A stretch of DNA of 64,000 nt from an uncultured delta proteobacterium (GTDB taxonomy: Bacteria > Myxococcota_A > Polyangia > Fen-1088), in the NCBI GenBank assembly GCA_963767925.1, contig CAVYGB010000010.1, positions 64,001 to 128,000 on the forward strand, in the 5' to 3' direction. The first letter of the stretch is position 1, and the number at the start of each line of letters is the position of its first letter. The notes under the pieces are model-generated. The model was not told the origin of the DNA, searched no databases, and saw only the letters and a program-made list of their open reading frames with translations. Shown here piece after piece: positions 2-8,608 of this stretch. The position numbers were made by a program, and so were the translations under genes.

Positions 2-442
2 GCCTGCGCCGGCTGCCACGCCCGCTTCGATTCGTTCGGGCTGGCCTTCGAGGGGTACGGCCCGGTCGGCGAGCGGCGCACGGTCGACCTCGGCGGGCGG
101 CCGGTCGACACGCGGGCGTCGTTCCCGCCCGGCAAGGGCGCGGGCCCGGCGGCGGGCGTTGAGGGCCTGGGCCTGGCGGGCCTGCGCGATCACCTGCGCG
201 CCAACCGCCAGGACGACTACCTCGACAACCTGTGCCGCAAGCTGCTCAGCTACGCCCTGGGACGTGGCCTCCTGCTCTCGGACGAGGCCACCATCCGGAA
301 GATGCGGACCGGCCTGGCCGCCGGGGGCAACCGCTTCGGCGTGCTGGTGGAGACCATCGTGGGCAGCCCCCAGTTCCAGACCCGGCGGGTCGGAGACGTC
401 AGCGCGGCCCTGGTGTCCCCGGGCGGCGGGGAGGTGCAGTAG
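2..442 (+). CDS. C-terminal part of DUF1592/DUF1588/DUF1585 (PSD/PSCyt) protein, truncated by window start
   Basis: Frame 2 translates as ACAGCHARFDSFGLAFEGYGPVGE...NLCRKLLSYALGRGL...SPQFQTRR, ending at TAG 440-442. CxxCH motif; collinear with the paralog at 53.6-54.0 kb; followed by DUF1552. Confidence 0.85.
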   Translation, partial: ACAGCHARFDSFGLAFEGYGPVGERRTVDLGGRPVDTRASFPPGKGAGPAAGVEGLGLAGLRDHLRANRQDDYLDNLCRKLLSYALGRGLLLSDEATIRKMRTGLAAGGNRFGVLVETIVGSPQFQTRRVGDVSAALVSPGGGEVQ

Positions 443-443
443 A

Positions 444-1742
444 ATGGCCGGCATGAACGGGCGGCGCTCGATTTCCCGCCGCGTCCTGCTCCGGGGCGCC
501 GGGGTGGCGATGGCGGTCCCCTGGCTGGAGTCGCTGCCGGTGTGGGGCGCGACAACCCCGCCGAAGCGGTTCGCGGTGCTGTTCATGGGCAACGGCATCA
601 ACGCCAACCACTGGTGGGCCAAGGGCGCCGGCCGGGACCTGCAGCTCGGCAAGAGCCTGCAGCCGCTCGAGCCGCTCAAGGCCAAGATGAACTTCATCAG
701 CGGCCTGTACAACAAGCCCTCGGTCGGCGTCGGCATCCACCCGGGCATGACCGGCGGCATCCTGTCGGGCGCCCCCTTGCAGAAGGGCTCGGTGCTCAAG
801 GCCGGCGTCAGCATGGACCAGGTGCTGGCCGAGCGCCTCGGGTCCGAGACGGTGCAGCCGAGCCTGGTCCTGGGCTGCGAGCAGCCCAACACCGGGTTTC
901 ACGAGACCAACTACTCGATGGCCTACAGCTCGCACATCTCCTGGCAGAGCCCGAGCTCGCCGGTGCCGCTGGAGGTCTACCCCTCGCTGGCCTTCGACAG
1001 CCTGTTCGAGAACCGGGGCGGCAAGCGCCTGCGCAGCATCCTCGACGCGGTCAAGGACGACGCCTCTGGCCTGAGCCGGAAGATCGGGGCCAGCGATCGG
1101 ACCAAGCTCGACGAGTACCTCACCAGCGTGCGCGAGGTGGAAAAGCGGGTCGAGCCGCTGCGCCCGACCGCGGCCGCCCAGCGCCAGCCGGAGCCGGCGA
1201 CCGCCCTGGCCCGGCCCCCCAAGGGCCTGCCCGAGGATCTGCGCGAGCATATGAAGCTGATGTGCGACGTCGCCGCCCTGGCTTTCCAGACCGACCGCAC
1301 CCGGGTGATCTCGCTGATCTTGTGCCGGGATCTCTCGGGCCTGTTTTACCCCTTCCTGGGGGTGCGCGACGCCCACCACCCCGCCTCGCACCGCGACCTG
1401 TCCGACGACTACGAGGCGATCACCCGCTACTACTGCGGGCAGCTCGCCTACCTCGCCACCCGGCTCGACCGCATGCCCGAGGGAGAAGGCACCGTGCTCG
1501 ACAACGCCTGCCTGCTGTTCCTGTCGAACATGTGGGCCGGCTGGAGACACGACAACAGCCGCCTGCCGGTCCTGACCCTGGGGGGCCTCGGCGGGACCCT
1601 CCGCACCGGCCGCATCCTCGAGTATTACGACAAGCCCGACGAGGAGCGGAAGCTGTGCAGCCTCTACCTGTCCCTCCTGGACCGGATGGGGGTGAAGCTC
1701 GACCGGTTCGGCGACGCCGACCGGCGTCTGGCCGCCATCTGA
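444..1742 (+). CDS. DUF1552 domain protein (Tat-like SRRVLLRG leader)
   Basis: ISRRVLLRGAGVAMAVPWLESL, SMDQVLA, YSSHISW, KLDEYLTSVREVEKR, EGEGTVLDN. ATG 444 directly follows the upstream stop (alternative ATG 453). Confidence 0.9.
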   Translation: MAGMNGRRSISRRVLLRGAGVAMAVPWLESLPVWGATTPPKRFAVLFMGNGINANHWWAKGAGRDLQLGKSLQPLEPLKAKMNFISGLYNKPSVGVGIHPGMTGGILSGAPLQKGSVLKAGVSMDQVLAERLGSETVQPSLVLGCEQPNTGFHETNYSMAYSSHISWQSPSSPVPLEVYPSLAFDSLFENRGGKRLRSILDAVKDDASGLSRKIGASDRTKLDEYLTSVREVEKRVEPLRPTAAAQRQPEPATALARPPKGLPEDLREHMKLMCDVAALAFQTDRTRVISLILCRDLSGLFYPFLGVRDAHHPASHRDLSDDYEAITRYYCGQLAYLATRLDRMPEGEGTVLDNACLLFLSNMWAGWRHDNSRLPVLTLGGLGGTLRTGRILEYYDKPDEERKLCSLYLSLLDRMGVKLDRFGDADRRLAAI

Positions 1743-1752
1743 GCCGGCGCCG

Positions 1753-2811
1753 TCAGGGGAAGGCCAGCACGTCGGGCTCGCCGTAGAAGCCGGCCAGGGC
1801 CTCGATGTGGCGCTGGGCGAACTCGCGCCGGGCGACAACCGCCCGGATCTCGCTGGCGGTGAGCACGTCTTCGGGGTCGCTCTCCTCGGACATCAGGCGC
1901 TCGAGGTTGGGCACCGTGACCCGGGCCAGCGAGCGATACAGCCGGCGGGAGAAGCGCTGGGTGCGCCCCAGGAGCTGGCGGTTGCGCTGGTGCCCCTCGG
2001 GGTTGAGGAAGAAGGCCATGGTGTTGTCCATGAAGAAGAGCTGCGATCCGTCGGGCGACATCTTGATGTTTCCGCCCGAGTAGCGGTCCGGGTTGGCGGT
2101 GAGGAAGTCGAACAGGATGAGGTCCGAGAGCTGGGCGGCCAGGGGGCGCTTCTCGGGCGGGATGAAGCTCCCCTGGATCAGCCAGGCGCCGCCCTCGCGT
2201 AGCCCCTCGCCCGTGTCGAGCCCGGAGTCCTTGATCTCCGGGATCCAGTAGGAGAACACCCCCGCTGTCCGTCCGAGCGGATTGAAGATGGTCTCGGCCC
2301 GGATGCGGGGGACTGCCGGCGTGCTCTCCGGGTGCAGCCGGGCCAGCAGGTCCTCGCGGCTGACCGCGCGGGTGGTGGCGGGCGGGACGGCGGCGAGGCC
2401 GAGCAGGCGGTTGAGCCGGTAGGCGGCCACCTCCTTGCGGGGGACCGTCTGTAGATTTGTCTGGGCCGGCTTGAAGGCGGCCCGAGATCCGTCGGCGAAC
2501 TCGACCCGGAAGGAGAGCGAGGAGCCGCCCTTGTTGAGCTTGAGGCGCACGATGGGCTGGTTGCGCACGCGGGCCAGCAGCAGATCGTCCGCCATGCCGA
2601 GGAACATCCCGGCCGGCTCGGCGATCACGGCCGGGTCGGGCGGATAGGAGATGTCCCGCCGGACCGGGTAACGCAGGGCCAGCTCGGCCCGGGCGCGCGC
2701 CTCCATGTGCCGGGAGATGGTGGCGGCCGCCACCCCCATGCTGCCGCCGATGGCGAACAGGGCGGTCACCGCCAGCACCAGCTCGACGAGCACGTAGCGC
2801 AGCAGCGACAT
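1753..2811 (-). CDS. Membrane-anchored atypical kinase, Four-jointed/Fam20-like
   Basis: N-terminal hydrophobic helix; AAFKP, KEVAAYRLNRLLG..VPP, DLILFDFLTANPDR and FMDN motifs. Confidence 0.7.
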   Translation of the reverse strand: MSLLRYVLVELVLAVTALFAIGGSMGVAAATISRHMEARARAELALRYPVRRDISYPPDPAVIAEPAGMFLGMADDLLLARVRNQPIVRLKLNKGGSSLSFRVEFADGSRAAFKPAQTNLQTVPRKEVAAYRLNRLLGLAAVPPATTRAVSREDLLARLHPESTPAVPRIRAETIFNPLGRTAGVFSYWIPEIKDSGLDTGEGLREGGAWLIQGSFIPPEKRPLAAQLSDLILFDFLTANPDRYSGGNIKMSPDGSQLFFMDNTMAFFLNPEGHQRNRQLLGRTQRFSRRLYRSLARVTVPNLERLMSEESDPEDVLTASEIRAVVARREFAQRHIEALAGFYGEPDVLAFP

Positions 2812-2854
2812 CGCCTACCGCTCCCGCCCGGAGGGGACGCCCGCCGCGGCTACG

Positions 2855-2883
2855 TTGATATACAGAGTAACATAAAATACAAT
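2855..2883 (+). promoter_or_regulatory. sigma70-type promoter TTGATA-N17-TACAAT
   Basis: TTGATA at 2855-2860 and TACAAT at 2878-2883 with a 17-nt spacer, in an AT-rich island between divergent genes. Confidence 0.6.
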
Positions 2884-2887
2884 CTTC

Positions 2888-4189
2888 ATGAGAGGCAACG
2901 TGGAGGCCGGCGGGTCGGACGGGAACGCCGGCCGGGCGCGCCGCCGGGTCGTCGCGAGAACAAGGATGGCGGCTTTGCGAGCATCGGTGATCCGGGACCT
3001 GGGGGGACTGGAGGCGATATCGGCAGAGTGGGAGGGTCTGCTGGAGCGGTCCGCGGCTCCGGAGATCTTTCGTACCCCCGACTGGATGTCGGTCTGGTGG
3101 CAGGTGTTCGGCGACGGCGGCCGGCAGCCCCTGGTGCTGGCTGTGCGGCAGGGTCGCACCCTGGTGGGCCTGGCCCCTTTCGTGCTGCGCGAGGTGGGAT
3201 GGGGCGGGCGCGCCCGCCTGCGGCGCCTCGAGCTGATGGGCACCGGCGAGGATCGGGCCGACGAGGTCTGCAGCTACTTCGGGGACATCCTGGCCGCTCC
3301 CGGGTTCGAGGAGACCGTGTGCGAGGGGGTGTGGCGGTTCCTGCAGGACAACCGGTCGGTGTGGGACGAGGCGGTGTTCCCCGGATTGCTGAAGAGCGCG
3401 CTGCTGGCCCGCCTGCTCCGCTCGGCGGCTCACGACAGCGGCCGGGCCACGGCGGTCAGCGGCGCCGGACGCCGCTATTTCATGGACCTCTCGCGGGGCG
3501 ACTTCGACGGCTTTCTCGCGGGGCTCTCCAAGAAGAAGATGAAGCGCTTCCAGTCGTACCGGCGGCGGCTGGAGAAGGAACAGACCTTCGAGGAGCGCAT
3601 CACCTCGCCCGAGGACGTGCCCCTGTTTCTGCGAGAGATGTCCCGGCTCAACCGCCTCCGGCACGGGAGCAAGGGGCGCTCCTCGGCCTTCGGCAGCGCG
3701 AAGTTCCGCCGCTTCCACGAGCTCCTGACGCCCCGGCTCTGGCAAAAGGGGCAGCTCGACCTGCGCATGTGGAGGCGGGAGGGACGCTGCGTGGCCGCCC
3801 TCTACCACTTCCTCTACGCGGGCACGGTCTACGGCTACCAGATCGGCTTCGACGCCGCCGCCTTCGGCAGCGTGTCGCCCGGCCTGGTCACCATCGGCCA
3901 GTCGATCGAGTGGGCCTTCGCCAGCGGCTGCCGGCGCTTCGACTTTCTCGTCTCCGGAGACGGCTCTTACAAGGAGGACTATCCCTGCCAGACCGAGGAG
4001 GTGCTCGACCTGACGATCTACAACGACACCGCCGCGGGCCGGCTCATGAACCTGGCCCGCCAGGCCCGGGGAGCCCTCCGCGACGTCCGCGCCCACCTCG
4101 AGGCGGCCCAGGCCCGGCAGGCGCCGGCCCTCCCCGCCCCCGCCCCCGCCCCCGAGGCTCCCGCGGAGCAAGCCCAGCCGGCCGCCTAG
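2888..4189 (+). CDS. GNAT family acetyltransferase, CelD/BcsL-like (Acetyltransf_6)
   Basis: WMSVWWQVF, LVGLAPF, YQIGFD..SPGLV, RRFDFL..GDGSYK pattern. True start may be ATG 2966. Confidence 0.8.
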   Translation: MRGNVEAGGSDGNAGRARRRVVARTRMAALRASVIRDLGGLEAISAEWEGLLERSAAPEIFRTPDWMSVWWQVFGDGGRQPLVLAVRQGRTLVGLAPFVLREVGWGGRARLRRLELMGTGEDRADEVCSYFGDILAAPGFEETVCEGVWRFLQDNRSVWDEAVFPGLLKSALLARLLRSAAHDSGRATAVSGAGRRYFMDLSRGDFDGFLAGLSKKKMKRFQSYRRRLEKEQTFEERITSPEDVPLFLREMSRLNRLRHGSKGRSSAFGSAKFRRFHELLTPRLWQKGQLDLRMWRREGRCVAALYHFLYAGTVYGYQIGFDAAAFGSVSPGLVTIGQSIEWAFASGCRRFDFLVSGDGSYKEDYPCQTEEVLDLTIYNDTAAGRLMNLARQARGALRDVRAHLEAAQARQAPALPAPAPAPEAPAEQAQPAA

Positions 4190-4243: not shown

Positions 4244-5419
4244 TCAGCGGGTGGTGATGGCGGTGAGGGCCTGGGAGATCTCGGACTCGCTGGTGACGCC
4301 CCAGAAGGTCTTCACGATGTTGCCCCCGCGATCGATGAGGACGATGTGCGGGAGGGCCACGACCTTGTACCGGCTGCCCACCTCGCCGTCCTGATCGATG
4401 ACCATCGGGTAGGGGGCGGGGTGCTCGCGCAGCACCGCCTCGACCTGTTCGGGCGTCACGGTGGATCCGTCGAAGTTGATGCCGAGGAACTCGACCCCTT
4501 CGCCCCGCCAGCGCTGATACAGCCGGTGCAGGGTCGGCATCATGTGCAAGCAGGGGGCGCACCAGGTGGCCCAGAAGTCGAGCAGGACCACCTGCCCGCG
4601 CAGCTCGGTCAAGCTGACCCCGCCTGGCTTGCCGTCGACGCGAGGGAGGGAGAACTCGGGCGCCTCGGTGCCACGGCCGAGCGGGCGGATGGCGTCGGCG
4701 TGCCGGAACACCCAGCCGGCGTTGACGAACAGGGCCGCCCCCAGCAGCCCGGCGAAGACGGTCACGGCGATGCGCGAGCGGGTCCGGGGCACCGTCGGCG
4801 GCGGGGAGCCGAAGGGGGCCGACGAGGTGGAGGCGTCGCCGGGGCCGATGCCGGCGGCGGTGATCTGACGCCCCCGGGCCTGGGCGATCCCCAGCCCCAG
4901 CACGACCGCCGCCCAGGCCAGGGCCGCCAGGCTGAAGAGCTGGTTGGCCGAGTAGGGCAGCGGGCCCAGGAAGGCCTCGTGATCGAGCGTGCGGTAGACC
5001 GCCCGCAGCGCAAAGAAGGGGACGTAGCTGACGGCGGCCAGCTCCAGATCTCGACCGGGATCGCGCCGGCCCCGGCCCGCGGCCAGGGTCAACAGGATGG
5101 CCGCCGGCAGGATCACGATGATCGCCTCGCGGACCTCGAAGCTGACAACCGCCAGGGTCTGGCGCAGCACGGTCCCGAAGGAGAGATGGGTGATGCCCAG
5201 CATCGCCCGCATCAGGTCCTCCAGGCGAAAGCAGAGGATGCCAGCGAGCACCAGCCAGCCGGCGTCGCGCACGCCGGTGGCCCGGGCCTCGACCAGGGCG
5301 AGAGCCCGGCGGGGCTCGGCCAGGATCATGCCGAGGCGGGCCGGCAAGGTGGCGTTCCATCTGGCCGGGGGCGCGTCGGGCGGCGCGGAGTCGGTGTCGG
5401 CCAGGGTCGCTTCCGGCAT
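4244..5419 (-). CDS. Multi-TM (Yip1-like) membrane domain fused to TlpA/ResA thioredoxin-like disulfide reductase
   Basis: About 5-6 hydrophobic segments, then APEFSL, VVLLDFWATWCAPC, LPHIVLIDRGG. Confidence 0.8.
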   Translation of the reverse strand: MPEATLADTDSAPPDAPPARWNATLPARLGMILAEPRRALALVEARATGVRDAGWLVLAGILCFRLEDLMRAMLGITHLSFGTVLRQTLAVVSFEVREAIIVILPAAILLTLAAGRGRRDPGRDLELAAVSYVPFFALRAVYRTLDHEAFLGPLPYSANQLFSLAALAWAAVVLGLGIAQARGRQITAAGIGPGDASTSSAPFGSPPPTVPRTRSRIAVTVFAGLLGAALFVNAGWVFRHADAIRPLGRGTEAPEFSLPRVDGKPGGVSLTELRGQVVLLDFWATWCAPCLHMMPTLHRLYQRWRGEGVEFLGINFDGSTVTPEQVEAVLREHPAPYPMVIDQDGEVGSRYKVVALPHIVLIDRGGNIVKTFWGVTSESEISQALTAITTR

Positions 5420-5426
5420 CGGGCGA

Positions 5427-6632
5427 TCAGTCCTTCTTGCTGCGGTTCTGGACGAGCCGCCGGGCACCCGCGCTGAGCGCCCCCGGCACGTTCTTGGACT
5501 TGGAGACCAGCTTGAGGTCGTCGGCCTGCAAGAAAGGCAGGAACCTCAGCGAGAGGGCCAGCGGGCACTTGGGGTTCTGCACCAGGTTGAGCTTGACCTG
5601 GTAGGTCTGGGTCAGGTCCCGCTGGGCAGCAATGTAGCGGATCACGTCTTCACAGACGCTGCGGTTGCCGGCGGCGTTCACGATCTCCGAGTCGGTGATC
5701 CGGGGGGATCGAATCGCGGCGAGCGCTACCATGCGGTTGGGATCCCGGAGGAGGTTCTTGCGACAGTACGCGTTGCCCAGGGTGGCCAGCCGGATCTTCT
5801 CGTAGAGCTTGAGGCGGGTAAAATCGATGATGGGGCTCTTGCGTTTCTTGTCGTCGCCGTCGCCCCCCTCTGTCTTGGCCTTCGCCGCGCCCGGGGGGCT
5901 GTCCTTCTCCTCCTTTTCCAGGAGGTCGTCCAGCTCCAAGGGGGGCGCGGACTCGGCGGTTGCCAGCAGCGCGGCAAACCCGGTGTCGACGGCGGGATCG
6001 GTGGCGGCGACGTCCTGCGCGATCGACTTGGCGACCTCGTCGAAGCAGGGGATGCCCTCGATCCGCACCCCGTTGCGGGCGCAGAGCTCGATGGCGCGGT
6101 TGAGCGAGGACATGCGGGACTGGGTGTTGAAGTAAAGAGCTTCCAGGATGGCCGGACAGCGCAGGATGCGCGCTTCATTGGCAAACATGACCTCCAGCTC
6201 GCGCTCGCGCAATCGGCTGGCCAGCAAGATGAAGGTCTGGTCGGCGGTCCCCTGGTTGTAGAGAACCGGCTCGAGGACCTCGGTCCGGTCGGGGCCCAGG
6301 CGCTCGGCGAAGTAGTGCAGCACCTGCGCGGGCAGCCGTTCGGCCAGGGCGGGGGCCAGGATCTTGTCGGGGATGCTGGTGGGGGCGCTCGCGCTGGCGG
6401 TGCGCACCGCCCCCTCGGCGTCGAACGAGAGCTGGTAGACGGCGGTCAGCAGCTCGGCCGGCCGCAAGGGAGCGATGCCCCGGGCGGCCAGGGTCTTCAT
6501 GGCGGGGGGCGCCGCCAGCAGCTTCTGCACGGCCGGGGGGAGGGTCTCGGCCGGCAGGGGGGCCAGCACGAACGCCGACAGGGCGCTGGCCGCCGGTCCG
6601 GTTGGTGAAAGCTCAGCGCCGGTTTCGTTCAT
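5427..6632 (-). CDS. Conserved hypothetical alpha-helical protein
   Basis: 401 aa with typical codon usage; KIRLATLGN..R..LLRDPNRMVA..AIRSPRIT..EI helical C-terminus; overlaps the coaX stop (operon). Confidence 0.75.
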   Translation of the reverse strand: MNETGAELSPTGPAASALSAFVLAPLPAETLPPAVQKLLAAPPAMKTLAARGIAPLRPAELLTAVYQLSFDAEGAVRTASASAPTSIPDKILAPALAERLPAQVLHYFAERLGPDRTEVLEPVLYNQGTADQTFILLASRLRERELEVMFANEARILRCPAILEALYFNTQSRMSSLNRAIELCARNGVRIEGIPCFDEVAKSIAQDVAATDPAVDTGFAALLATAESAPPLELDDLLEKEEKDSPPGAAKAKTEGGDGDDKKRKSPIIDFTRLKLYEKIRLATLGNAYCRKNLLRDPNRMVALAAIRSPRITDSEIVNAAGNRSVCEDVIRYIAAQRDLTQTYQVKLNLVQNPKCPLALSLRFLPFLQADDLKLVSKSKNVPGALSAGARRLVQNRSKKD

Positions 6633-7380
6633 GAATGATTCGCAACCCCCCCAAGGTAAGCAGCTCGTCGCACTCGTCGATCGAGGTGGTCTCGGCCGCG
6701 ATGAGCGACGCCAGGCCCCCGGTGGCGATCACCCTCGGGGAGAAGCGCACCTCGGCCCGGATGCGGGCGATCAGCCCGTCGACCAGGGCGGCGTAGCCCA
6801 GCACCAGCCCGGCCTGCAGGCTGTTCACCGTGTTGCGGCCGATGACGCTCGGGGGGCGCCGCAGCTCCACCCGGGGCAGCTTGGCGGTGGATCCGAACAG
6901 GGCGTTGGCCCCGCTCATCAGCCCGGGGGCGATGATGCCCCCGGCGTATTGTCCCCGGTCGGTCACGACGTCGAGCTTCGTGGCGGTGCCGAAGTCGACG
7001 ACCACCGCTCCCTGGGGAAACCGGGCCTGGGCGGCCACCGCGTTGACCAGCCTGTCGCTGCCCAGCTCGCGCGGGTTGTCGTAGAGGATCGGCATGCCGA
7101 CCTCGATCCCCGGGCCGACCAGCAGCGGCGTGAGGTCGAAAAAGCGGCGAAAGAAACGTTCGGTGGGGGCGGTCGCCGCCGGGACCACCGACGATATAAT
7201 CCCCGCCGTGACCTCCGAGAAACGTAGCCCCGCGAGCTCGAACAGTCCGCGCAACATCGCCCCCAGCTCGTCCCCCGTCCGCTCCGGCCGCGTCTCGCAA
7301 CGCCAGTGGATCCGCAGGTTTTCCCCCTCGTGCAGCCCGAAGACGGTATTTGTGTTGCCGATGTCGACGGCGAGCAGCAT
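6613..7380 (-). CDS. coaX: Type III pantothenate kinase
   Basis: MLLAVDIGNTN, LGSDRL, VVDFGTAT, GGIIAPG, VIATGG, LTLGGL. Confidence 0.95.
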   Translation of the reverse strand: MLLAVDIGNTNTVFGLHEGENLRIHWRCETRPERTGDELGAMLRGLFELAGLRFSEVTAGIISSVVPAATAPTERFFRRFFDLTPLLVGPGIEVGMPILYDNPRELGSDRLVNAVAAQARFPQGAVVVDFGTATKLDVVTDRGQYAGGIIAPGLMSGANALFGSTAKLPRVELRRPPSVIGRNTVNSLQAGLVLGYAALVDGLIARIRAEVRFSPRVIATGGLASLIAAETTSIDECDELLTLGGLRIIHERNRR

Positions 7381-8608
7381 GCCCGCTCTATTGTATCCGG
7401 TCCTGGCGACGCTGCTGGCGACCGGCCTGGCGAGCGCGGGCTGCAACCGCAACAAGAAGCCGCCCGTCGATCCCGAGGAGGCGGGCAAGCTTCGCCGCAT
7501 CGCCCAGAACCTGGAGCAGGCTTATGCCCGGGCGCCCCTCCCACCGATGACCGAGCCGGCGGCGCTCGTCGATCGGCTCGACAAGTGGGACGACTTCCGT
7601 GCGTGCACGGTGCGGACCTACGTCGCCCGGAAGCGGGACGCCGACAAGCGCGCGCGTGAGGGCGGGTCGCGCCCCAGCCGGCACGCCAGCATCGGCGACG
7701 AGACCGTCGAGGAGTGCGCGGTCCAGATGGCGGTGGCCAAGAAGGATGCCAGCGTCTGCGAGCGGCTGGCCCTCGACTACGAGGAGCCGAGCGGGGGGAT
7801 GCCGCTGTCGGCCGTGCGCTGCCTGGACACGCGCGCCCGGGTGTTCGGCACGCCCGAGGAGTGTCCGGTGGTCTGGATGCCCGCCGACGCGCCCGCCCGC
7901 AACCCCGAGTGTCTGGCGATGGCCCTCCGCGATCGCAGCCTGTGCCCCTTCACCGACAGCCCCGGGCGCTGCCGGGCCCTGCTCACCGGCGACTCGGCGA
8001 GCTGCAACGCCCCCGACGGCGCCCCCGACTGCGCCCTGGCCCTGGAGTACTGGAAGGGCGCCATCCCCGCCCAGATGGGCCCGCCCCTGATCGACGAGGC
8101 GGCCCACAAGGACAAGCCGCTCAGCGCCAGCTTCGACCTGCGCTGGACCGGCAACGCCCACCCCCACGTGCGCATCCAGGGCCCCAAGGCGGCCACCGGC
8201 ATCTCCTGGCCGGCGGGGCGGGCCCGGCCGGCCTTCACCGAGGAGACCACGAAGTTCTGGGGCGCCGAGCTCCCCCCCGAGGCGGCCCAGGTGAGCTGGC
8301 GGATGGGGGATCCGGCCATCAAGCTGGCCTTCGCCCCCGGCGGCGCCAGCTCGGGTGTGCGGCCGCTGCTCCCCCCCTCGCCCGGGGCCCCCGCCACCTT
8401 CATCGCGGTGTGGGCGGACGATCCCGGGGCCTTCCGGCGCTGTCAGCCGGGCCCCCTCACCAAGGGGGAGGTGCGGTTCGAGGCCAGCGAGGTGCGCCCC
8501 GGCGGCATCGTCACCGGCGAGGCCCGCGCCACCAAGCTGGCCTGCTCGGACGGCACCGAGCTCGAGCTGCGGGCCACCTTCCGCCTCGTGATCCTCGATC
8601 TGCGCTGA
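7379..8608 (+). CDS. Cys-rich hypothetical lipoprotein
   Basis: Signal peptide with lipobox-like SAGC; 12 further Cys; alternative start TTG 7391. Confidence 0.7.
   Translation: MPALLYPVLATLLATGLASAGCNRNKKPPVDPEEAGKLRRIAQNLEQAYARAPLPPMTEPAALVDRLDKWDDFRACTVRTYVARKRDADKRAREGGSRPSRHASIGDETVEECAVQMAVAKKDASVCERLALDYEEPSGGMPLSAVRCLDTRARVFGTPEECPVVWMPADAPARNPECLAMALRDRSLCPFTDSPGRCRALLTGDSASCNAPDGAPDCALALEYWKGAIPAQMGPPLIDEAAHKDKPLSASFDLRWTGNAHPHVRIQGPKAATGISWPAGRARPAFTEETTKFWGAELPPEAAQVSWRMGDPAIKLAFAPGGASSGVRPLLPPSPGAPATFIAVWADDPGAFRRCQPGPLTKGEVRFEASEVRPGGIVTGEARATKLACSDGTELELRATFRLVILDLR

Follow-up and report, generated by a model that had tools for sequence, protein, structure and literature searches.

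A 64,000-nucleotide stretch of DNA from an uncultured delta proteobacterium of the Polyangia (contig CAVYGB010000010.1, positions 64,001 to 128,000; hereafter called the window) was found to contain, close to its start, a gene whose product is almost certainly truly homologous to the secretory-pathway kinases of the animal Fam20 family, which phosphorylate secreted proteins and sugars. The protein is probably a minimal, disulfide-free bacterial kinase of the Fam20 fold, in which the canonical Asn of the catalytic loop replaces the loop Glu of the animal enzymes and which is tethered to the membrane and faces the periplasm. An earlier note, made from the sequence alone, had proposed a Four-jointed/Fam20-like secretory-pathway kinase at this place, and an open reading frame (ORF) of 352 residues with an ATG start was found at exactly the position that it gave, on the reverse strand.

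The window had a guanine plus cytosine (G+C) content of ~71%, and the other long ORFs that overlapped the kinase region were the usual shadow frames of high-G+C DNA. The kinase frame was set apart from these because homologues were found for that frame. Among 8000 candidates scored, 886 homologues of the kinase frame had E<=0.001; the 120 matches listed were 58-100% identical to it, and the named ones among them were each a 'hypothetical protein' of Polyangia.

Similarity to Fam20 in sequence, fold and active site

The Protein Data Bank (PDB) was searched with the kinase sequence and with two profiles of its relatives. All five matches to the single sequence at E<=10 were Fam20B, Fam20C or Fam20A, and the best of them showed an E-value of 0.0047. 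The profile of 23 orthologues reached Fam20C at 1.5e-7, and the profile of 118 sequences revealed Fam20C at 1.6e-24, zebrafish Fam20C at 3.9e-21, Fam20A at 1e-19, C. elegans Fam20 at 1.4e-16 and Fam20B at 3e-13, its match consisting of two stretches that spanned both lobes and the C-terminal helices of Fam20. PI4KIIa was the next PDB entry after Fam20, and its E-values of 0.21 (118-sequence profile) and 1.9 (23-sequence profile) were not significant; no CotH or HipA chain was present at E<=10 with the single sequence or with either profile. Judged from these alignments, the resemblance of the sequence to Fam20 is far beyond chance.

The Pfam Fam20C family (PF06702) was reached by 14 of the 23 orthologues at E<=1, the best at 8.3e-6, and weak HipA_2 matches were present in four of the 23 (best E 0.11). 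A Pfam scan of the kinase itself at E<=1 returned no family at all, CotH (PF08757) included, and its match to NCBIfam TIGR03843, at 17.6 bits, was below the cut-off of 172.4. The nearest ESM Atlas clusters were bacterial, with Myxococcota the commonest source, and PF06702 was present in 10-36% of their members.

The structure of residues 61-352 was predicted with AlphaFold from a deep alignment, and the resulting model showed a predicted local distance difference test score (pLDDT) of 96.7 and a predicted template modelling score (pTM) of 0.94. A first model, made from an alignment of 23 close sequences, reached a poor pLDDT of 65.1 and was left out of the fold search. Foldseek placed Fam20 chains at all of ranks 1-28, with E-values down to 3.1e-13 and query template modelling (TM) scores of 0.69-0.75, and PI4KIIa followed after all of the Fam20 chains (E 1.8e-6, TM 0.55). 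Upon superposition on representative structures with VIA-align, zebrafish Fam20C showed a Z-score of 24.5 with its root mean square deviation at 3.1 over 276 of 292 residues, the Fam20B-like Hydra Fam20 a Z-score of 24.4 and C. elegans Fam20 a Z-score of 23.9. The metazoan Fam20 proteins thus overlaid on the model with Z-scores of ~24 and 275-276 of the 292 residues aligned. Beyond Fam20, the Z-scores were 16.2 for PI4KIIa, 13.5 for CtkA, 13.2 for actin-fragmin kinase, 11.3 for both HipA and CotH, and 9.7 for MavQ. The closest structure was therefore Fam20 and not a HipA-type or PI3/4-type kinase, and the Fam20 assignment of the earlier note was borne out by the sequence profile and by the fold alike.

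Every motif on which that assignment had been based was located in the kinase, namely AFKP (residues 112-115), EVAAYRLNRLLGLAAVPP (residues 127-144), DLILFDFLTANPDR (residues 230-243), MDN (residues 261-263) and the hydrophobic N-terminus, and the Fam20C motifs given there for comparison (LFKP, EIAAFHLDRIL..VPP, FDFLMGNMDRH and LDN) were seen in the aligned PDB chains. Residue conservation was counted in 118 diverse relatives, which form the rows of the family alignment. Equivalent residues of human Fam20C were assigned through the 118-sequence profile alignment, and the roles of these residues were taken from the available text of PMC4421793, in which K285 and E311 form an ion pair, D458 is catalytic and D478 binds metal. 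The corresponding residues of the bacterial kinase and their conservation are listed in Table 1; in addition, D235 and R328 were each kept in all 118 relatives. The Asn of the catalytic loop, N248, is located six residues after the catalytic Asp (D+6), where Fam20C reads DRHHYET. In ordinary and PI3/4-type kinases, the Asn at D+6 is the one that binds metal. The residue roles given in PMC4421793 also include E306 of Fam20C, which lies on a Fam20-specific loop, is indispensable and is a Gln in the pseudokinase Fam20A. We infer from the aligned residues that metal binding in the bacterial enzymes would be canonical and that the Asn would have been exchanged for the loop Glu in animal Fam20. Because the near-invariant residues include the ion pair as well as the catalytic and metal-binding Asp, and because the canonical Asn is present, the kinase is predicted, with good confidence, to be an active phosphotransferase and not a pseudokinase.

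The kinase contained no Cys, and the median Cys content of the family was 2 over the 118 rows. No conserved Cys pair was found among these rows, and only one column had Cys in at least 30 of them (43 of 118).

Animal Fam20 comprises the Golgi casein kinase Fam20C, the xylosylkinase Fam20B and the pseudokinase Fam20A. Comparison of the bacterial kinase with animal Fam20 revealed that the two share a GG[ST] loop, the Lys of FKP, an E(I/V)AA(F/Y) helix followed by VPP, an FDFL..N.DR loop, the metal-binding Asp of (L/M)DN and a C-terminal helical lobe, and both families have members with a signal-anchor or a cleaved signal. In contrast, the bacterial kinase is ~100 residues smaller and lacks both the four disulfides that are conserved in animal Fam20 (PMC5865150, in the part available) and the essential loop Glu, which is E306 in the human protein and Asp in Fam20B; it has the D+6 Asn that is absent from Fam20C. 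The bacterial host and the lipoprotein members of the family are further differences from animal Fam20, and the kinase falls below the Pfam threshold. PI4KIIa/b provided the second-best fold; like the kinase, these proteins have a D-R-x-x-x-N-type catalytic loop and are membrane-associated, but their sequence match was insignificant, their structural score was clearly below that of Fam20, and they are eukaryotic lipid kinases of the cytosolic face. The CotH spore-coat kinases and the HipA toxin kinases, which are the bacterial atypical kinases connected with Fam20C before, share only the broad atypical-kinase fold with the kinase, and neither gave a sequence match at E<=10. The mother cell is where CotH works, and HipA works in the cytoplasm; unlike HipA, the kinase has no HipB-like partner gene.

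Membrane topology, proposed mechanism and alternatives

A hydrophobic helix, read as a signal-anchor, was present at the N-terminus, where the earlier note had placed a membrane anchor. The most hydrophobic 19-mer of this region started at residue 3 and had a mean Kyte-Doolittle value of 2.23, and residues 2-47 formed a single helix in the first, low-confidence AlphaFold model. Glu10, which lies within the membrane helix after a conserved Arg, was invariant across the 23 orthologues, and the motif R-h-x-x-[Y/C]-h-h-h-E was found in 31 of the 118 family rows, all of them in one clade. Because this buried acid is conserved, the sequence suggests that the helix touches another membrane protein and does more than anchor the kinase. 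Type IV prepilin-like processing was also considered and was rejected, as the Glu, counted from the sole candidate Gly, is at +6 and not at +5, and this Gly was unconserved.

We then compared the N-termini of 105 representatives of at least 300 residues. A strict lipobox was found in 27 of them, another hydrophobic N-terminus in 39 and the same anchor in 17, and the remaining 22 had none of these; several of the 39 were clear lipoprotein or Sec signals, and some of the 22 rows were truncated. In addition, 14 genomes of other families each contributed their best homologue. The 11 that were recovered by crude gene calling comprised five lipoprotein starts, two Sec-type starts, two anchors and two unclear cases. 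A quick maximum-likelihood tree of the 118 rows, midpoint-rooted for drawing only, revealed that the 31 anchor-type rows were contained within one clade with a Shimodaira-Hasegawa-like approximate likelihood ratio test (SH-aLRT) support of 97%. This clade also contained signal-peptide and lipobox rows, and outside it lipobox and signal-peptide forms dominated. On the evidence of these N-terminal signals, the Fam20-like catalytic domain is exported in many relatives, and the types of tether interchange. The kinase domain of the present protein probably faces the periplasm, because lipoprotein or Sec signals are present in its relatives, the closest homologues from sister families among them; the extracytoplasmic catalytic domain envisaged in the earlier note is accordingly the favoured placement, ahead of a cytoplasmic one.

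Taken as a whole, we favour, if only somewhat, a single-pass, membrane-tethered and catalytically competent Fam20 homologue in stripped-down form that acts on a component of the envelope. Its layout would consist of a short positive N-terminus, the hydrophobic helix with its buried conserved Glu, a linker of ~35 residues and a Fam20-fold domain of 285 residues; with the domain directed toward the periplasm, this would be a type-II-like layout as in Golgi Fam20B. The catalytic steps are proposed because the residues concerned are conserved. ATP with Mg or Mn would lie under the GGS loop, the nucleotide would be held by the Lys114-Glu127 ion pair and the metals by Asp262 and Asn248, and Asp242 would be the base that activates the substrate hydroxyl. 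The periplasm-facing domain would in this way phosphorylate an envelope component. Periplasmic or membrane proteins may well be its targets, ahead of a glycan or a lipid-linked sugar, which we see as the less probable choice.

Several observations weigh against such a kinase. The Lys/Arg count around its helix was ambiguous, with one before the helix and ~4 among the 19 residues that follow it, and the same charge count in relatives with a hydrophobic segment gave 73 N-in, 33 N-out and 52 ties. The periplasm of bacteria is commonly regarded as free of ATP, and an outward-facing kinase would need an ATP supply that is unexplained. No acidic residue predominated at the position aligned with E306 (T in 35, S in 32 and R in 20 of the 118 rows), and the Fam20-specific loop was 13 residues shorter in the alignment. 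Furthermore, PF06702 did not match the kinase itself at E<=1, and a search of its whole genome with PF06702 revealed nothing at E<=0.01. The excess of Lys/Arg after the helix in this kinase would suit a reversed anchor (N-out, C-in), which would put the kinase domain on the cytoplasmic side of the inner membrane with ATP, plentiful only in the cytoplasm, at hand; the operons of some paralogues also contain genes for cytoplasmic enzymes (acyl-CoA dehydrogenase and agmatine deiminase). However, the orthologues usually start with MRLxRY, so that two Arg precede the helix in a manner that resembles signal peptides, lipobox or Sec signals are present in the nearest homologues of other families and in much of the wider family, and the same-strand neighbour of the gene encodes a periplasm-type thioredoxin. 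We regard the reversed anchor as unlikely.

The absence of the loop Glu bears on whether the protein is a kinase at all. Fam20A is inactive through the loss of exactly this Glu (PMC4421793, available text), and a position that is never mainly acidic in the bacterial family would agree with a pseudokinase, or with a kinase fold that performs another chemistry, such as AMPylation or glutamylation. In contrast, the ion pair and the metal-binding Asp were near-invariant, the catalytic Asp was present in 116 of the 118 relatives, and the canonical Asn, kept in 114 of them, plausibly takes over metal binding; a pseudokinase or other chemistry is very improbable. A different question is posed by the target, as the same enzyme in the same orientation could be a glycan or lipid-linked-sugar kinase, as Fam20B is on xylose, and could act on a polysaccharide of the envelope or a lipid-linked precursor on the outer side of the inner membrane. 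The only Fam20 of the earliest-branching animals is a glycan kinase according to the accessible part of PMC5865150, the fit to the Fam20B-like Hydra protein equalled that to Fam20C, and the next-best folds include the lipid kinases PI4KIIa and MavQ. A short tether would also keep the domain near the membrane, and one paralogue (L093) adjoins a polysaccharide deacetylase gene. The profile nevertheless ranked Fam20C above Fam20B by the E-values given above, the remaining structural neighbours were mostly protein kinases (CtkA, actin-fragmin kinase, HipA and CotH), fused paralogues bear the protein-interaction modules TPR, FG-GAP and zinc ribbon, and glycan-synthesis genes were not conserved beside the kinase in the loci examined. 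We consider a glycan or lipid-linked-sugar kinase possible but rather doubtful, and we prefer the tethered, periplasm-facing Fam20 homologue described above.

Gene neighbourhood and relatives

The positions of the kinase gene, its functional residues and its neighbours are given in Table 1.

Table 1. Features of the kinase gene and its surroundings, with positions in the window
Feature	Position	Strand	Basis or remark
Fam20-type kinase coding sequence	1753..2811	(-)	ATG start, 352 residues plus stop; ORF list
Minimal Fam20-fold kinase domain, ~residues 68-352	1756..2610	(-)	AlphaFold model and structural search
N-terminal hydrophobic helix, read as signal-anchor, ~residues 6-30	2722..2796	(-)	hydrophobicity; AlphaFold; E10
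Gly-rich nucleotide loop K94-G-G-S97	2521..2532	(-)	aligned to Fam20C SGGT; G95 is Gly in 105/118
Lys114 (AFKP), ion-pair Lys, human Fam20C K285	2470..2472	(-)	K 105/118, R 11/118
Glu127 (KEVAAY), ion-pair Glu, Fam20C E311	2431..2433	(-)	E 115/118, D 3/118
Catalytic loop D242-R-Y-S-G-G-N248; D242 is Fam20C catalytic D458	2068..2088	(-)	D242 116/118, R243 118/118, N248 114/118
Asp262 (MDN), metal-binding Asp, Fam20C D478	2026..2028	(-)	D 117/118
GGGAG, Shine-Dalgarno-like, putative ribosome-binding site	2821..2825	(-)	9 nt 5' of kinase ATG; read from sequence
AT-rich divergent intergenic region, kinase/GNAT	2812..2887 (76 bp)	n/a	GGGAG site falls inside
Candidate sigma-70-like match	2855-2883	(+)	consensus match; sole one in the kinase/GNAT intergenic region
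DUF1592-type and DUF1552 gene pair	2-1742	(+)	adjoins kinase, DUF1552 downstream; seen in window
GNAT (Acetyltransf_6, FemAB-like), between thioredoxin gene and kinase	2888..4189	(+)	Pfam 4.8e-25
Multi-pass membrane domain plus CxxC thioredoxin (TlpA/ResA-like), upstream neighbour	4244..5467	(-)	Pfam AhpC-TSA 1.2e-23, Redoxin 8.8e-23
401-residue protein, no Pfam family, between coaX and thioredoxin gene	5427-6632	(-)	conserved in 42/80 loci
CoaX, pantothenate kinase gene	6613-7500	(-)	in conserved order, 65/80 loci
Ig-repeat protein, 1879 residues	11961-17600	(-)	ASH/HYDIN/Cep192-type Ig-like domains and DUF1573

Related loci were collected by a pattern search in which each species was represented by a single genome; it found 104 relatives, of which 80 were kept. 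The 80 loci were found with the closer alignment and thus represent the near subfamily only; all of them were metagenome-assembled, with the labels Myxococcota, Myxococcales, Polyangia or the older 'delta/Proteobacteria'. Their common order on one strand was coaX, the gene of the 401-residue protein, the thioredoxin gene and the kinase gene, with the first three present in 65, 42 and 71 of the 80 loci, respectively, and the gap between the thioredoxin and kinase genes was as small as 30-70 bp in some loci. In the window, the end of the 401-residue gene overlaps the start of the annotated thioredoxin ORF by ~40 bp. The GNAT gene was found at its present position in only one of the 80 loci, that of the closest relative, and is a lineage-specific insertion outside the conserved arrangement; the insertion looks recent and looks to have given the kinase gene its own promoter region.

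Five of 301 Myxococcota genomes had the membrane domain of the thioredoxin protein, which adjoined the kinase in three of them, so that the thioredoxin link is specific to one clade, and this neighbour was rejected as a family-wide partner. Another long ORF (7094-8608, forward strand) overlaps coaX with its first part; tblastn matches to it in related loci were antisense to coaX, and this first part is probably a non-coding shadow frame.

None of the genes downstream of the kinase in the window was conserved next to it in related loci, and DUF1552 was beside the kinase in none of the 80. In the other loci, the downstream genes were housekeeping genes, such as those for a RimO/MiaB-type radical SAM protein and NadA. 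A link of the kinase to DUF1552, to GNAT or to the Ig-repeat protein was therefore dropped. The earlier note had put forward the Ig-repeat lipoprotein or a pentose-containing glycan as a speculative substrate, and neither suggestion was supported: the Ig-repeat gene is located 9 kb away, past housekeeping genes, with nothing to tie it to the kinase, and nothing in the window tied a pentose-containing glycan to it. Neighbours differed between lineages, and no single partner or substrate emerged. Ig domains of the ASH/HYDIN/Cep192 type are elsewhere characteristic of proteins of the eukaryotic cilium and centrosome.

The kinase gene was present once in its own genome (9.3 Mb, 13 contigs, 84% complete). 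Because of the single copy, the conserved gene order and the housekeeping genes downstream, we class it as a core gene that has been passed down vertically in its Polyangia lineage, and not as a mobile element. The wider family was large, as an exhaustive search revealed 775 clusters at E<=0.001, 506 at 1e-10 and 130 at 1e-30; among ten distant clusters, the three named members were Myxococcales or Proteobacteria metagenome genomes. Sampling at the phylum level covered Myxococcota genomes, and at least 89 of the 301 sampled had a match at E<=1e-5, a count that comes from a stricter first look and is a floor. Copies per genome were often 2-7 in this sample, and some families were positive in 17 of 18 or 26 of 26 genomes.

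The contexts of more distant relatives were varied. In other families, the best homologue was found after a CcsA-like cytochrome c assembly gene on one strand (L109:2183-5556, L120:4498-6602 and L121:4498-7746), usually with an acyl-CoA dehydrogenase gene between the two. Both the thioredoxin and the CcsA contexts contain a gene of a type used to mature cytochrome c or in periplasmic thiol chemistry, which we note as a lead only; likewise only a lead for the thiol context is that animal Fam20C phosphorylates Ero1-alpha and PDI, as stated in the available part of a review (PMC7948968). A paralogue group with lipoprotein or Sec-type starts was located directly 5' of agmatine deiminase and C-N hydrolase genes on the same strand in three genomes (L089:3137-6164, L091:4881-7819 and L092:3091-6098), and with an ornithine cyclodeaminase gene nearby in two of the three, the context is that of a polyamine pathway. 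At another locus (L095:4998-7818, reverse strand), a PhoD-like phosphatase gene is followed after 29 bp by a lipoprotein-type Fam20-like kinase on the same strand, and these could be an exported phosphatase-kinase pair. One paralogue context contained a 5'-nucleotidase. A DUF1552 gene or a DUF1592/DUF1552 pair was also found beside two unrelated paralogues (L095:520-4381 and L089:7894-9768); this adjacency to Fam20-like kinases may be chance, because such pairs are very common in these genomes.

Some stop-to-stop frames from the genome searches fuse the Fam20-like domain to a zinc ribbon, to TPR, or to CotH and FG-GAP, and a search for longer, fused forms with the family alignment found none, which is weak evidence on this point. 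In one such frame (L086:3202-7314, forward strand), a Fam20-like domain is combined with a CotH kinase domain (Pfam 1.3e-5) and with FG-GAP repeats. This frame could represent two atypical kinases fused together with extracellular repeats, or else a read-through of two genes.

Relation to earlier work and significance

The literature treats Fam20 kinases as specific to animals. CotH is described as the bacterial relative of Fam20C in the available part of PMC12189002. A 2022 survey of the Legionella kinome, as far as its accessible text goes, grouped FAM20 with CotH and called the FAM20 cluster eukaryote-specific or Metazoa-specific (PMC9758233). In the available sections of a paper on Fam20 evolution, animal genomes only were searched, and the Fam20 proteins of sponge and Hydra were reported to be glycan kinases (PMC5865150). 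The passage at hand from a 2026 preprint named FAM20B among up to five possible contributions of Myxococcota to eukaryotic endomembrane functions, with the authors' own caveat that the Myxococcota signal is not always unequivocal (10.64898/2026.05.08.723234). Apart from this passage, no study of a bacterial Fam20 homologue was found in the literature outside subscription journals.

CotH has so far been the distant bacterial link to Fam20, and the bacterial family described here is much closer. Its active site is conserved, its sequence clusters number in the hundreds, and it has a bearing on how the eukaryotic secretory-pathway kinases originated. Outside the cytoplasm, bacteria may label molecules in the manner of the animal Fam20 kinases. 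If the catalytic domain is extracytoplasmic, it would represent a rare case of ATP-dependent extracytoplasmic phosphorylation in a Gram-negative bacterium, with the source of ATP becoming the question, and the enzyme would be a simple Cys-free and glycan-free model for the Fam20 fold.

More tentatively, Myxococcota might keep a large exported family of Fam20-type kinases, comprising lipoprotein, secreted and anchored forms, that phosphorylate with ATP in the periplasm or outside the cell. If this were true, it would point to an unrecognised supply of ATP to the bacterial envelope. It would also mean that the animal secretory-pathway kinases arose from a prokaryotic lineage or side by side with one, with the ancestral Asn of the catalytic loop kept in bacteria and later replaced by the loop Glu in animal Fam20.

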